64,000 nucleotides of DNA. Origin: Gemmatimonadota bacterium (GTDB lineage: Bacteria; Gemmatimonadota; Gemmatimonadetes; Gemmatimonadales; GWC2-71-9). The notes beneath the pieces were generated by a model. The model saw only the letters and a list, made by a program, of their open reading frames with translations. It was not told where the DNA came from and did not search any database. Position 1 is the first letter of the stretch. Each line of letters opens with the position of its first letter. This document shows, piece after piece, positions 4,150 through 32,479 of the stretch. The stretch covers positions 32,001 through 96,000 of the forward strand of contig JBDHAB010000001.1 of the NCBI GenBank assembly GCA_039588295.1, in the 5' to 3' direction. The translations under genes and the position numbers were made by a program.

Positions 4150-5241
4150 ATGTTGAAAGACCACACGCTCGCTGGTGCCCGGGATTTCAAGGAAATCGGG
4201 TACGAGCTACGTCCTGCCCGCGATCCGGCCGGCAACGAGGCGGCCGGGCTCTACAACGCGTGGATCATCCTGAACAACCCCGGCCAGCTCAACAGCTACA
4301 CGACGGATGCGGTCAAGGAGGTGATCCTCGCCTTCCGCCAGGCAAGCATGGACCGAAGCGTGGTCGCATGCGTCTTCACTGCGGTGGGGGACAAGGCTTT
4401 CTGCACCGGTGGCAACACGAAGGAATACGCGGAGTACTACTCGGGGAACCCGCAGGAATACAAGCAGTACATGCGGCTGTTCAACGACATGATCGACTCC
4501 ATCCTGCGGTGCGACAAACCCGTGATCAACCGCGTCAACGGCATGCGGCTCGCGGGCGGTCAGGAGATCGGTATGGCGTGCGACTTCACCATCGCCGCCG
4601 ACACCGCCCGGTTTGGCCAAGCCGGCCCGAAGCACGGCTCGGCGCCCGACGGCGGGTCGACCGACTTCCTGCCCCTGTACGTGGGCTTTTCGCGGGCCAT
4701 GGAAAGCGGCGTCCTCTGCGAAATGTGGAGTGCCCATAAGGCGCTCTTCATCGGTCTCATCAACGAGGTCGTCCCGGTGCTCAAGGTGGACCGAAAGTGG
4801 ATACCCAACCCAATGGTGATCACGGACCGATTCGTCGACGACTTCGGCAACATCGTGTTCGGTGATTTCAAGACCGGTGAGGAGCGCGACGCCGCGAAGG
4901 CGGTGCTTGCCAGCGCCGAGACCGACCTCGCCAAGCTCGACGAAGCGGTGGAGACCCTGTGCACCAAGATTCTACTGCTGATGCCCGACTGCGTCTCGAA
5001 GACCATCAACGGGCTCCGCAAGCACAAGCAGTGGCACTGGGACAACACCAACGTGACGAACCGGGAGTGGTTGGCCCTCAACATGATGACGGAGGCCAAG
5101 GCCGGTTTCCGCGCCTTCAATGAAGGGCCCAAGGGCAACCGCGAGGTCGACTTCATCAAGCTTCGCCAACTGTTGGCCGACGGCCACCCATGGGACGACG
5201 ATCTACTGCGCGCGATCTCGCCGCAGTATCAAGAGAGTTGA
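4150..5241 (+). CDS. oah: 6-oxocyclohex-1-ene-1-carbonyl-CoA hydrolase (Oah/BamA)
   Basis: Signature motifs NSYTTDAVKEVILAF, FCTGGNTKEYAEYY, GQAGPKHGSAPDGGSTDFLP, WLALNMMTEA; ATG 4150 after GGGGAG. Confidence 0.95.
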   Translation: MLKDHTLAGARDFKEIGYELRPARDPAGNEAAGLYNAWIILNNPGQLNSYTTDAVKEVILAFRQASMDRSVVACVFTAVGDKAFCTGGNTKEYAEYYSGNPQEYKQYMRLFNDMIDSILRCDKPVINRVNGMRLAGGQEIGMACDFTIAADTARFGQAGPKHGSAPDGGSTDFLPLYVGFSRAMESGVLCEMWSAHKALFIGLINEVVPVLKVDRKWIPNPMVITDRFVDDFGNIVFGDFKTGEERDAAKAVLASAETDLAKLDEAVETLCTKILLLMPDCVSKTINGLRKHKQWHWDNTNVTNREWLALNMMTEAKAGFRAFNEGPKGNREVDFIKLRQLLADGHPWDDDLLRAISPQYQES

Positions 5242-23760: not shown

Positions 23761-25860
23761 TCACACCATACAGGTCTTCACGTATTCGGCACCCACCCGC
23801 CCCTCCCGACACGCCGCGGACACCATGAACTCGGCCGAATGGTTCGCCTGCACCGTCAGCGCCTCGGACAGCGGAGTATGGCAGGCGCCGTCGATGCAGG
23901 CCATGATTGCCTTCCTGCCGGCGTCGCTCCCCGGTGTCCCCGCAGGGGGCAATGCACCCACCTCCTTCGAGACTCCGTCGAGCGCGCCCACTTCGACATC
24001 TCGACGGGGGAGGCCGTGGTCGGCCCCGGTGGCCACCTGCCACGCCTTCTGGATTGCATCCGCGAGGGGCGCCGCGTAGTCGATGAGCCACCCCACAGCG
24101 TCGGTCGCCCGCACCGACCGGCCTGTGAGCAACAACTCAACCAGCCGAGGCCAATCATCGGACCGGGCTTTCCGAAACGGCCAGTGGCAGCCCTCCATTC
24201 CGGGTACGACGGGCAACGTCACCTCGGGCATGCCGAGCTGTGCGCCGTCCACAGCGATGAGGTAGTGGCAGTGCATGAGCAGCTCCAGCATGCCGCCTAG
24301 ACAGCGCTTGCCGTTCACGAAGGCCACAGACGTCTCGAACTCGTCGTGCAGGCGTCGCGCGGTTCGCGACCAATCGCCCGCAATCCGAGAACCTTCGGCC
24401 GACTGCTCCAATGCGGGGAAGAACTCGTTTGTGTCGGCTCCTACCATCTGCGTTGCGAGATGGAAATCTCCGGTCACGATCACCCGGCCGATACCCGCGG
24501 CCTTGAGCGCGTCGATTGCCCGATTGAGCTCGACGTCGACGTCGGCATTGTAGCTCTCCCGGCTGATCGTGATCACGCCCGTCGAGCCGTCGTGTTCGGC
24601 GTTCACGTACAGCTGCCGCCACTCGGGCTCATCCATTCGCGCGCAGGTGTCCGGATACCACGCGTGCCCCGCTGCCTCCGGATGCAGCTGGTGATACGCC
24701 TCGACCATTCGAATGACGGCGTCGGGACCCATGCCGCGCATCACCGCGAGGACACCGCGGCGGAATTGCGCGCAGAGTTCACCGATTGCGTTTATATGCG
24801 CGAGGTGACTGCGACGCTCGTGAAGCATGAGACTCGTCATTTGGAACAGCGGTCCGAGAATCCAGGTGCGGAATTCCTCGTCGTCGTCACCCTCCAATGA
24901 CCAGTTCACCAGCGGCCGGAAGTGGTTGGGTGGATACCACGACTGACCGCTGTCCTTCTGTGCGATGAGCTCCACCGTCGGCTCGAATACCGCACCGTAC
25001 TGCTGACTCAGGTGATGCAAGCACGACCAGGTCAGGAAGTTGGCGCCCTTCGCGCCGATGGCGTCGTGCGCCCTGAAGGGGTTCGGCCCAAGCAGCTTGC
25101 GGGCGAACTTGTCGACCTTCCAGAAGGGCATGTTGCGCGCGTGGTGGAACCTGAGCGCCGCGAGTGTGAGGCCGCAAAACAGCACATCCAACACGAACGA
25201 CCAATGGTCACTCACGGGGATGGGCATCAGCCCCAGCGCCCAAAGGAGTTGTGTAATCGCGGACGGTTCCGGCTCGACCACTTCCCAGACCTTGTTGATC
25301 TCGTGGGGGAAGGCCGGGTGTGCAATTCCAACACCCAACTCCGAGCTTGGGAATCCGGACGTGACCGAACGGATCTCGATTTCCGGAAACGACTCGCGGA
25401 AGATCCCGTAGTGCGCCTTCTTGACCTCGAGGATCTCCGGGATCGCTTCCAGCAGAAAGCGCGGATTGAGGTTCTTCAGCTCCGATGGCAAGTGCGTGCC
25501 GTCGTAGCTCAGTCGGATGATGTTCCCCATGATCCGCGCGGCCCCCTCCGACCCAAACGCCTGCACCAACCCGGGATACTGCCTTCCCACGCCATCGGGC
25601 GCGTTAGGAAAATCGAGGGCTACGATCCGCACGTCGAACGGCTGCAACCTTGAGCCCAGCTGCATCGTCTTGCCGGCACCGACGATGCCATTGGCGCCGG
25701 AAATGACCAGGGACCCCCGTGCCCCTGGCTTGCCGAACACCTGATCCACCAGGTCGCCCGGATCCGCCGGGAGTCTTCCTTGGCGGTAGATGTCAATGAC
25801 GCCGCCGAGCCCAATCGTGTGGAGTGTCGGTTCCCGCATCGCCGTAATCATCGCCGTCAA
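23761..25860 (-). CDS. Divergent 3-hydroxyacyl-CoA dehydrogenase / enoyl-CoA hydratase fusion
   Basis: N-terminal Rossmann-like GANGIVGAG, LLEAIPEILEVK; C-terminal crotonase motifs CLGGMLEL, GMPEVTLPVVPG. Confidence 0.75.
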   Translation of the reverse strand: MTAMITAMREPTLHTIGLGGVIDIYRQGRLPADPGDLVDQVFGKPGARGSLVISGANGIVGAGKTMQLGSRLQPFDVRIVALDFPNAPDGVGRQYPGLVQAFGSEGAARIMGNIIRLSYDGTHLPSELKNLNPRFLLEAIPEILEVKKAHYGIFRESFPEIEIRSVTSGFPSSELGVGIAHPAFPHEINKVWEVVEPEPSAITQLLWALGLMPIPVSDHWSFVLDVLFCGLTLAALRFHHARNMPFWKVDKFARKLLGPNPFRAHDAIGAKGANFLTWSCLHHLSQQYGAVFEPTVELIAQKDSGQSWYPPNHFRPLVNWSLEGDDDEEFRTWILGPLFQMTSLMLHERRSHLAHINAIGELCAQFRRGVLAVMRGMGPDAVIRMVEAYHQLHPEAAGHAWYPDTCARMDEPEWRQLYVNAEHDGSTGVITISRESYNADVDVELNRAIDALKAAGIGRVIVTGDFHLATQMVGADTNEFFPALEQSAEGSRIAGDWSRTARRLHDEFETSVAFVNGKRCLGGMLELLMHCHYLIAVDGAQLGMPEVTLPVVPGMEGCHWPFRKARSDDWPRLVELLLTGRSVRATDAVGWLIDYAAPLADAIQKAWQVATGADHGLPRRDVEVGALDGVSKEVGALPPAGTPGSDAGRKAIMACIDGACHTPLSEALTVQANHSAEFMVSAACREGRVGAEYVKTCMV

Positions 25861-27062
25861 GCCCCTTCCGACACGTTGAAGATCGCCGCTATGCCCACAT
25901 CGCCGGCGGCACAGCCGAAGACCAAGACATTACCGCCACCTAAATCGACCGCTTCCTCGAGTGCCTCGATCAGTATGCGCGTGAGGGTTGGCCCCTGCGG
26001 GTGACCCCACACGAGGGAGCACCCCGTCTTGTTCATCTCGTGCCAGTCGTAATCCAGGAGCCTTCCAAAGACTGCGTCATTGACCGCAAATGGGTTGTGG
26101 TTCTTTACCACCGCCATGTCCCGCATTGTCAGGCCCGCCCGCTCCAAGAGTTGTTGGACCGCCAGCGCGGGTGCTTCGGGCATGAGGCTCGCGTGGGTAC
26201 GTAGCTCCGTCTTGGCCACGAATTGAATGTCGATCTCGGGACGGGGACTCAGTTCCCGGGCGCGTTCCTTGGTGGTCACGAGCAGGGTCGCCATGCCATC
26301 TGACGCGTGAGTCTGTGTGCCACCGGTGACGCACGTATCCAGCTCGCGCATCTCCCTGAGCCCCTCGAGCGTCAGCTGCCGCACCCCAAGGTCGTCATCA
26401 ATGCGTCCGAGGGGCCGGCCCTGGAGGTTCAGGACATCGAGCGGCACCAGCACCCGATTGAGGAAGCAGGACTTCTTTGCCTCGAAGTACTGCCGGTGAC
26501 GATGAAACGCGAGTTCGTCCACCTCTTGCCGCTCGATGCGGTATTTTCGAGCCGCAACACCGGCAGTCGTGATCATCGAGTTACCGGTCGCCGGATCGAA
26601 CCCGAAGTTGTCCCACACGTCCGCGAGTGCCTGAGTGCGCTCGTGGGCGCGTCGCTCGGGAAACACCCCGACGGGCGAGTCGCTCGTGCGGTCGAACGTC
26701 AGCACTCCGACGACATCGCTCGCAGCGGTTTCCACTTGGCTCCCAGCCAGGACCACAGCCTGGAGACCCGTCGCACACGCCTGTTCCACGTGATAGCCGG
26801 GAATGCGCTGCCCAAGGCAACTCGCCACCAGCGGGGCGTTCCAGAATTTCCAGTGCCACGGGATGGTTGACCCAATGACCAGGTAATCCAGCTCGCTCTT
26901 GGGCACACGGCGGAGGCTCAGGATTCGATTCATCGCCTCACCGGCGAACTGGCCAATATTTACTTCCGCCAGCGCGGAGGTCTGCCACGCGGGGAAATGG
27001 CTGCTGCCCCATGTGCCGTAGGGGATTCTGGCTCTTGGAAACATCGAGGTGTGCGCCGTCAT
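25857..27062 (-). CDS. Thiolase-family protein (divergent)
   Basis: EQACATG, THASDG, WGHPQGPT, FGCAAGDVG; ATGA overlap with the downstream fusion gene. Confidence 0.85.
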   Translation of the reverse strand: MTAHTSMFPRARIPYGTWGSSHFPAWQTSALAEVNIGQFAGEAMNRILSLRRVPKSELDYLVIGSTIPWHWKFWNAPLVASCLGQRIPGYHVEQACATGLQAVVLAGSQVETAASDVVGVLTFDRTSDSPVGVFPERRAHERTQALADVWDNFGFDPATGNSMITTAGVAARKYRIERQEVDELAFHRHRQYFEAKKSCFLNRVLVPLDVLNLQGRPLGRIDDDLGVRQLTLEGLREMRELDTCVTGGTQTHASDGMATLLVTTKERARELSPRPEIDIQFVAKTELRTHASLMPEAPALAVQQLLERAGLTMRDMAVVKNHNPFAVNDAVFGRLLDYDWHEMNKTGCSLVWGHPQGPTLTRILIEALEEAVDLGGGNVLVFGCAAGDVGIAAIFNVSEGA

Positions 27063-27217
27063 GCGTGTCAGTCCAATTGGCTCGAGGTGGTGCGTGTTGA
27101 GCGTGCACCGAGCCCGCGGGCGATCAGGTGCCGCTAATCAGAGACGAAAGATGCGCACGGATCACGCTCCAGGCGAGCCCGAGTTCATCATGCACCAGCG
27201 GTGTGGAAGGAGACTCC

Positions 27218-27267
27218 AAAAACACTGAGCCGCGTCGTTGGTACCGAATGCCCAACGGCGCGGCTCA
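27218..27267 (-). terminator. Rho-independent terminator
   Basis: Stem TGAGCCGCG-CGTTGG / CCAACG-CGCGGCTCA followed by GTGTTTTT on the minus strand. Confidence 0.7.
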
Positions 27268-27338
27268 TGACCTGCGCAACCTGGTACGACCGCCGTCTGG
27301 CGCTCGATCAAAGGCGCAGATCGCGATTCGGTCCTGGG

Positions 27339-27401
27339 TCAGCTACCGATGCGGCGATCGCTTGCCCATACCAGGTTGCGCTCTGGTTGATTACTAGACA
27401 A
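27339..27401 (-). CDS. Putative 20-aa peptide MSSNQPERNLVWASDRRIGS (TTG start)
   Basis: TTG 7 nt after GGAGG within AAGGAGGTGATCCA; TGA stop at 27341-27339. Confidence 0.4.
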   Translation of the reverse strand: MSSNQPERNLVWASDRRIGS

Positions 27402-27583
27402 TGGATCACCTCCTTGGCTGGGGTACGCGTTCGGGCGTGAACGCCCGAATACTAATAGGAACCGTCAGAAATGGCGAAGGTCCCCGCTCGATTCCACCCG
27501 CTCGCCCCCACCCCCGACACTACCCAGCCTTGCCGGTCCTATGTACTTTGCGTGCCCTTAGTTACAGCCACGGAGAGGTTGGT

Positions 27584-32321: not shown

Positions 32322-32394
32322 TTGCCCCGCCTGGGATCGAACCAGGACTCTTCTGATCCAGAGTCAGACGTGTTGCCAATTACACCACGGGGCA
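32322..32394 (-). tRNA. tRNA-Gln(CTG), no encoded CCA
   Basis: TGCCCCG acceptor stem, anticodon arm TCTGA-CTCTGGA-TCAGA, T arm CCTGG-TTCGATC-CCAGG. Confidence 0.95.
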
Positions 32395-32406: not shown

Positions 32407-32479
32407 TGGAGCTGAGGGGGCTCGAACCCCTGACCTCCTGGGTGCGATCCAGGCGCTCTCCCAGCTGAGCTACAGCCCC
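32407..32479 (-). tRNA. tRNA-Ala(CGC), no encoded CCA
   Basis: GGGGCTG/CAGCTCC acceptor with G3-U70, anticodon arm CCTGG-ATCGCAC-CCAGG, GGTTCGA T loop. Confidence 0.95.

Follow-up and report, generated by a model that had tools for sequence, protein, structure and literature searches.

In Bacillus mRNAs, STAB-SD elements, reportedly described by Agaisse and Lereclus in 1996, are said to carry a perfect Shine-Dalgarno (SD) sequence near the 5' end that binds the 30S subunit. Their role is to stabilise the long mRNA that follows rather than to have it translated efficiently, and they are not known to possess a start codon of their own. Closer to the RNA considered here are the rre small mRNAs, i.e., rreB of the Bradyrhizobiaceae and rreR of the Rhodobacterales (Hahn et al., RNA Biol 14:1353; PMC5711450). 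According to that paper, rreB was detected as a transcript of 165 nt whose SD measures 17 nt. In Bradyrhizobium it co-sediments with 30S subunits, and its localisation to the ribosome needs the SD extension. The RNA is weakly translated and becomes stabilised when its start codon is changed to a stop codon. Overproduction of rreB in Bradyrhizobium had no growth effect or phenotype, and a simple ribosome-sequestering role is therefore unlikely (PMC5711450). Hahn et al. treated rreB and rreR as small-protein genes with peptides conserved within clades, and reported that the synthetic RreB and RreR peptides are unstructured (PMC5711450). Their search, which required at least 16 nt complementary to the 16S 3' end, yielded analogues in four alphaproteobacterial orders only (PMC5711450). 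Moreover, the Caulobacter sRNA CC2171 (Rfam family RF01867) has been validated by Northern blot in Methylorubrum (bioRxiv 10.1101/2022.01.24.477521). Our literature search found no report of an rre-type RNA outside Alphaproteobacteria, none on Gemmatimonadota and no later work on rre.

The locus studied here is part of a 64,000-nt stretch of a Gemmatimonadota contig (hereafter the window). The divergent spacer between a DUF481 outer-membrane gene and a thiolase gene is the site of a small-RNA element on the minus strand (Table 1). A sequence-only reading of this DNA had described an AT-rich -10-like sequence, a TTG-started frame of 20 codons, a helix extension with a G-U pair and an intrinsic terminator about 155 nt ahead of the thiolase. 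All of these were recovered, and the distance from the terminator end (27218) to the thiolase ATG is 156 nt. Two further structural features are likewise present but need a qualification. The 5' hairpin is perfect in the window, but only some relatives have one at this place; conservation is limited to its 3' arm GTTCACGCCCG, in which GCCC is invariant in 13/13 aligned sequences. Likewise, the 13-bp helix, termed P1 here, is perfect in the window, whereas its last two pairs are not kept in most relatives. A box resembling TATTAGTAT, CCTAT(N3)AT, is found at equal spacing in the relatives. A scan of the locus for the sigma-70 consensus returned no promoter, and the terminator scan of the promoter/terminator tool missed the long-loop terminator. 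The predicted fold of the 256-nt stretch has a z-score of -5.4, and none of 200 shuffles folded as well.

Table 1 Features of the small-RNA locus and its flanking genes in the window (P1, long-range helix; sORF, short open reading frame).
Feature	Position	Strand	Basis or remark
Thiolase ORF	25857-27062	-	ORF list and domain match
DUF481 gene, ATG	27584	+	ATG precedes a signal-peptide-like stretch and the start of the DUF481 match
Putative -10-like AT-rich box TATTAGTAT	27457-27449	-	sequence; promoter role inferred
5' stem-loop TTCGGGCG-TTCA-CGCCCGAA, perfect, 8 bp, loop UUCA	27449-27430	-	sequence and predicted fold
Extended SD AAGGAGGTGATCCA (RNA AAGGAGGUGAUCCA), 14-nt complement of the 16S tail	27415-27402	-	sequence
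sORF, 20 codons, MSSNQPERNLVWASDRRIGS	27401-27339	-	sequence; TTG at 27401, TGA at 27341-27339
P1, 5' strand (sORF codons 8-12)	27381-27369	-	perfect 13-bp pairing with 27286-27274
16S-tail look-alike GGGCAAGCGAUCGCC	27367-27353	-	two alternative partners (SD/start or 27294-27287)
Inward P1 continuation, CGAUCGCC with GGCGGUCG	27360-27353 with 27294-27287	-	one U-G pair
P1, 3' strand	27286-27274	-	pairs with 27381-27369
Intrinsic terminator, 15-nt arms (14 pairs), 10-nt loop, then AGUGUUUUU	27266-27218	-	stem 27266-27252 with 27241-27227

Two observations concern the thiolase side of the locus. After the small-RNA terminator, the thiolase leader holds a weak second terminator-like site (27167-27153, minus strand), consisting of a 5-bp stem followed by ATCTTTCGTC. 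Furthermore, a 699-codon ORF (23761-25860, minus strand) overlaps the thiolase stop. Its residues 439-610 match ECH_1 only below threshold (25.4 versus 27 bits); the product probably partners the thiolase as a divergent FadB/FadJ-like protein.

To assess the claimed complementarity to the ribosome, the 16S tail was read in genomes of the same family, as the assembly of the window does not include a 16S 3' end. The tail string was present in 33/121 family genomes (32/120 when genome G099 is set aside). In 8/8 family genomes inspected the 16S rRNA ends with ...CUGCGGCUGGAUCACCUCCUUUCUGG, and one of these eight tail loci was confirmed as SSU rRNA with 1513.5 bits. As the family tail reads ...CUGCGGCUGGAUCACCUCCUUUCUGG, the complement in the window is 14 nt long, so that the perfect anti-16S match is borne out, as is the statement that it far exceeds a canonical 6-nt SD. 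The 14-mer occurs exactly once in the window, against 0.01 expected matches at one mismatch or fewer, and once in the 4.5-Mb assembly; it is thus more than a chance occurrence. The computed energy of the duplex between the SD and the 16S tail is -26.0 kcal/mol. AGGAGGTGATC within the extended SD is invariant in 13/13 sequences. Among the 21 loci of the subfamily with a 20-codon frame, the complement measures 13 nt in eight, 14 nt in eight, 15 nt in one and 16 nt in four.

Shorter or imperfect versions of the site were also present. GGAGGTGATC has 30 copies in the genome versus one for the reversed word, mostly in apparent Glu-Val-Ile codon strings of coding-looking sequence, and apart from the small RNA only one copy heads a sizeable ORF. 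On contig C12 of the window's genome (around position 1311, plus strand), GGAGGTGATCCAATG heads a 90-codon ORF, and an ordinary gene of this genome therefore also uses an 11-nt SD. In the window itself, a one-mismatch copy of the 14-mer, AAGGAGGTGATCCT, is located at 4315-4328 (plus strand) in a coding-looking Lys-Glu-Val-Ile codon string with no start codon behind it.

We then examined the conservation of the element. The 522-nt spacer was searched in 61 genomes including that of the window (G000) at E <= 0.001 and was matched in 18 of them, including 7/8 other genomes of the same genus; the only same-genus miss is a genome that is 78% complete. The eight long matches (seven from the genus and one from another genus) show 81-85% identity. 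The alignable block corresponds to query positions 131-366, from just before the SD through the terminator, and the flanks are unalignable even within the genus. The nearest titled homologues of the element are from Gemmatimonadales or Gemmatimonadota. As it has only one copy in the window's genome, a reading as repeat or mobile element was dismissed.

The sequence-only reading had proposed gathering homologues, and those that we collected display covariation and keep the extended anti-16S match. Thirteen sequences were aligned, among them the window, eight relatives and three Gemmatimonadota metagenome-assembled genomes (MAGs), while the contig-truncated locus L010 was left out. RNAalifold predicts 44 consensus pairs across these sequences, with compensatory changes in 18. 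In P1, both sides change in 7/13 pairs, compared to 3.6 +/- 1.0 in shuffles, of which 1/500 reached seven; controls with a slid partner strand gave 0-2 pairs changing on both sides. Outside the window, only a few relatives have the two innermost P1 pairs. The predicted terminator shows compensatory changes in 9/13 pairs, each in at least one sequence. The stop codon changes from UGA to UAA in two sequences, and its predicted pairing partner changes too (pair 110/151: GC in 11, AU in 2). The extension of P1 with GGCGGUCG comprises eight pairs with 86.5% of cells paired and is without covariation. Thus, both predicted structures, P1 and the terminator, are supported by compensatory changes, and comparison of the homologues indicates a conserved, free-standing small RNA gene that is real and non-random.

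Conservation of this kind could also stem from a coding frame on the plus strand or from chance. Indeed, three ORFs on that strand run across it, with 89 codons (27128-27397), 79 codons (27201-27440) and 306 codons (an extension of the DUF481 gene starting at 27401). However, variation shows no 3-base periodicity in any phase, alignment gaps between relatives span 1, 2 and 4 columns within the element, and the antisense frames carry stops in most sequences. As to the extension, the DUF481 match and the signal-peptide-like stretch both follow the ATG listed in Table 1. We therefore regard an origin in plus-strand coding or chance as exceedingly improbable.

Sequencing data were also inspected. 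No sequencing run contained at least half of the words that make up the stretch. In X13, the only clear RNA library, eight short contigs of relatives (151-173 nt, 80-95% alike, depth up to 173) fall on 27264-27429. The flanks are without cover, but they are unconserved in the relatives and so provide no control; moreover, contig ends may be branch points of the assembly graph, and DNA may be in the library. For these reasons, the X13 contigs are a weak hint at most and are not counted as evidence of transcription.

As to the reading frame, its start and stop columns are kept in 13/13 sequences, and all 21 loci of the 20-codon subfamily start with TTG. Of the 21 columns per codon position, 11 vary at the first, 15 at the second and 12 at the third position, which thus shows no excess, and pairwise codon differences comprise 98 synonymous versus 681 nonsynonymous changes. 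Codons 4-9 and 18-20 each encode 3-8 different residues, whereas codons 13-16 are invariant at every base, as constraint on the RNA would predict. Codon 2 is TCT in 11 and TCC in 2 of the genus set (n = 13), which was obtained independently of any pattern; among motif matches TCT is universal because it was built into the search pattern. The alignment thus points to a retained frame and constraint on the RNA, with a peptide that is not conserved.

These data bear on whether the locus is a genuine small-protein gene, in which the 20-residue peptide would be functional and the strong SD would merely set its expression. The constancy of start, frame length and stop position in all 13 sequences would fit such a gene, as would the view of Hahn et al. 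that the RreB and RreR peptides are clade-conserved (PMC5711450). The substitution pattern speaks against it, and peptides of different subfamilies share only Met-Ser, of which the Ser codon was part of the search pattern. The lack of structure in the synthetic RreB and RreR peptides (PMC5711450) points in the same direction. On balance, we consider a functional peptide unlikely and favour a working RNA fold. A side observation concerns three loci (L054 and L072, both titled Azospirillum, and L133) in which the extended SD and an ATG head an ORF of 59-60 codons with a signal-peptide-like N-terminus; judged from sequence, this variant is probably truly coding. Hahn et al. mention a plasmid-borne ATG form in Azospirillum (PMC5711450).

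Downstream of the start codon, within the frame, the invariant segment GGGCAAGCGAUCGCC resembles the GAUCACC stretch of 16S rRNA. It can pair with GGUGAUC in the 3' half of the SD and with UUGUCU, which comprises the start codon and codon 2. Each of the 13 pairs of this putative masking helix can form in 13/13 sequences, and 12/13 pairs never vary. As both strands are invariant, the helix has no covariation support; the invariant pairs are consistent with masking of the SD and start but do not prove it. The computed duplex between SD and look-alike has an energy of -17.7 kcal/mol versus -26.0 kcal/mol for SD and 16S. The energy of the masked fold minus that of the SD-free fold ranges from -13.3 to +7.2 kcal/mol over the 13 sequences, and the masked fold is the minimum-energy state in 3/13 sequences only. 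As an alternative partner, the look-alike can use GGCGGUCG, which adjoins P1. A minimum-energy pairing of the SD with CUCCUU beyond the terminator was rejected, as this stretch comes after the U-run and is not conserved.

To learn how widespread such a complement to the SD and start is, the 90 nt downstream were compared to dinucleotide shuffles. The complement is enriched in 20/21 loci of the 20-codon subfamily of the window, in 16/19 loci of the 14-codon type that includes rreB and in 3/3 loci of the 11-codon type. Enrichment was seen in 22/61 loci of the CC2171 type and 2/16 others, and in 0/14 loci of the rreR type.

The order of sORF, helix, terminator and a same-strand thiolase 156 nt further on is reminiscent of a leader peptide. 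The sequence-only reading had offered a translation-coupled attenuator of the thiolase operon. In such a device, terminator formation would hinge on translation of the sORF. Like trpL-type attenuators, the element combines a short ORF, alternative helices and an intrinsic terminator; in contrast to them, we see no conserved downstream operon, no run of regulatory codons in the sORF and no antiterminator pairing. Specifically, pairing of a P1 strand with a terminator arm was found neither by eye nor in the minimum-energy and consensus folds. Seven same-genus loci include both flanks; their terminator is followed by a thiolase gene in one (the window), by a Ser/Thr kinase gene in three and by a convergent SLT-domain gene in three. 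In 91 loci of the wider family, the next gene by a crude ORF call shares the strand of the RNA in 48 and has the opposite orientation in 43, and no common partner was apparent in the gene neighbourhood of the family loci. As the downstream genes differ within the genus, the small RNA is not a thiolase attenuator in our view, and we rate this explanation as very unlikely. For annotation, this removes a false reading as leader of the thiolase operon.

Several neighbourhoods recur among subsets of loci. A Kdo-transferase gene (Glycos_transf_N) adjoins the RNA gene in six loci (L012, L015, L016, L019, L026 and L030), three from relatives of the window and three from Gemmatimonadota MAGs, whose sORFs belong to the 20-, 14- or 11-codon subfamilies. 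The occurrence of this neighbour whatever the subfamily suggests that the sORF subfamilies are positional orthologues. In three Rhodobacterales loci (L024, L040 and L056; 3/5 scanned loci of the 18-codon rreR type), the RNA gene is situated between a Vut_1 transporter gene and a same-strand ORF of ~139 residues with an RF-1 domain, which looks like arfB, known from ribosome rescue. Two Bosea loci (L046 and L048) have a same-strand RNase R gene after the RNA gene. The arfB-like and RNase R neighbours may be a functional hint or mere local synteny. Finally, in Bradyrhizobium loci L076 and L097 a tRNA gene is directly beside the rreB-type RNA gene, in agreement with the published context of rreB next to tRNA-Gly (PMC5711450).

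With the homologues at hand, we scanned more broadly for the motif. An exact 18-letter motif (17 fixed bases and one N) was present in 87/401 genomes of the phylum (86/400 when genome G176 is set aside), always as one copy per genome, while the reversed control motif was found in 0/401. By family, it occurred in 64/166 (f1), 12/93 (f2), 9/30 (f6) and 1/7 (f4) genomes and in none of the remaining 104 genomes sampled. Since the pattern is exact, these counts are lower bounds. A scan with AGGAGGTGATCCANTGTCT over one genome per species gave at least 120 loci. Among the matches listed, 80 loci carry a title: 58 are alphaproteobacterial, 10 are from Gemmatimonadota, two from Gammaproteobacteria, one from Planctomycetaceae and nine from unresolved Proteobacteria. 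The motif is followed by a frame of mostly 10-27 codons (133 loci), with up to 60 in the three Azospirillum-type loci, and the start codon is GTG or TTG in 119/136 family loci. The sORF subfamilies include a 14-codon type corresponding to rreB and an 18-codon type corresponding to rreR.

We also compared the locus to catalogued RNA families. At gathering thresholds, the Rfam scan of the window returned no family at the locus, as the sequence-only reading had anticipated; the sole matches were two adjacent tRNA genes elsewhere (32322-32394 and 32407-32479, minus strand). Permissive scans gave miRNA and snoRNA matches, which were dismissed as chance level. The best sub-threshold match at the locus was RF01867 (CC2171) with 15.7 bits versus a cutoff of 75 (E = 0.3), and its alignment to the window rests on the SD, the start codon and the terminator. 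The RF01867 consensus begins with GAAAGGAGGUGAUCCAGUGUCU, the start AAGGAGGUGAUCCA-NUG-UCU is common to it and the window, and both place a long-range helix between the early codons and a stretch just before the terminator. The RF01867 model passes 4/4 alphaproteobacterial loci with 21-25 codons and fails on the 13 others (0/7 Gemmatimonadota, 0/2 rreB, 0/2 rreR, 0/1 gammaproteobacterial and 0/1 Planctomycetaceae). A match of this strength does not establish common descent with the alphaproteobacterial RNAs.

Rfam files RF01867 as an sRNA, and one may ask whether the element is a base-pairing small RNA or a sponge, whose SD-like 5' end or inner loops would target other RNAs. Its organisation as a stand-alone unit with a terminator would suit this, and so would the inner segment GGACCGAAUCGC, which is conserved and unpaired in the consensus fold. 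However, in several phyla the conserved 5' sequence exactly complements the 16S tail and invariably precedes a canonically spaced start codon and a short frame, and rreB co-sediments with 30S subunits (PMC5711450). Targets other than the ribosome thus appear improbable to us.

The comparison to the rre RNAs (PMC5711450) is closer. Both, the RNA of the window by prediction, are stand-alone units of ~165-230 nt with their own terminator, with an SD that covers the free 16S tail and a non-ATG start directly after the complement. Both contain a very short sORF (14, 18 or 20 codons) inside RNA structure as well as an internal segment able to mask the SD and start, and both are clade-conserved genes with variable neighbours. 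The differences are also clear. The named relatives found here belong to Gemmatimonadota, whereas the paper has Alphaproteobacteria only. The complement measures 14 nt in the window (13-16 nt in its subfamily) instead of 17 nt, which places the window below the 16 nt that Hahn et al. set as their minimum. The TTG follows the complement without being part of it, whereas the complement of rreB includes the G of the GTG. Moreover, the peptide is unrelated and the inner fold different. With STAB-SD elements the RNA shares a perfect SD near the 5' end that would bind the 30S subunit for a purpose besides efficient translation, but in the window this site opens a tiny frame of its own, and the start codon of rreB reduces the stability of the RNA.

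Taken together, the locus probably represents a free-standing small RNA gene of ~225-230 nt (~27449-27218, minus strand) of the rre kind, which would dock on 30S subunits and in which the fold rather than the peptide would be the working part. As judged by its sequence features, it is an uncatalogued Gemmatimonadota branch of a published kind of RNA. The suggestion of a ribosome-binding small RNA agrees with the conserved anti-16S site, start and short frame and, by analogy, with the co-sedimentation of rreB with 30S (PMC5711450). The label 'undescribed' was apt for the missing Rfam match only, as the kind had been published for Alphaproteobacteria in 2016/17 (PMC5711450).

A mechanism can be proposed, mostly by analogy with rreB. 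A 30S subunit would dock on the exposed AAGGA seed and would then displace the look-alike GGGCAAGCGAUCGCC, which can otherwise cover the start codon and the remainder of the site. The subunit would thereby be held in a very stable, poorly productive initiation complex. Rare translation through codons 8-17 would unzip P1 and its extension and expose the RNA to decay. The working part would be ribosome engagement together with the RNA fold, not the peptide.

More speculatively, we entertain a cross-phylum superfamily of single-copy, ribosome-docking mini-mRNAs that sense free 30S subunits or initiation capacity, which we regard as conceivable though doubtful. If true, it would span Gemmatimonadota, Alphaproteobacteria, some Gammaproteobacteria and Planctomycetaceae, and each RNA would carry both the complete complement to the 16S tail and an internal mimic of it. 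Docking would open such an RNA, translation of the tiny frame would destroy it, and a partner would read the status of the ribosomes from its level or fold.

Few bacterial RNAs pair with the entire free 16S tail, and the rre and CC2171 RNAs belong to these. The design is kept at one copy per genome in about a fifth of the sampled genomes of a second phylum, which argues for selection on the design itself. Its elements are the extended site for docking, the weak start codon, the very short frame enclosed in a helix and the internal segment that resembles the 16S tail. The Gemmatimonadota form escapes both Rfam and the published 16-nt search rule. Gemmatimonadota thus offer independent lineages in which the purpose of this ribosome engagement may be tested.
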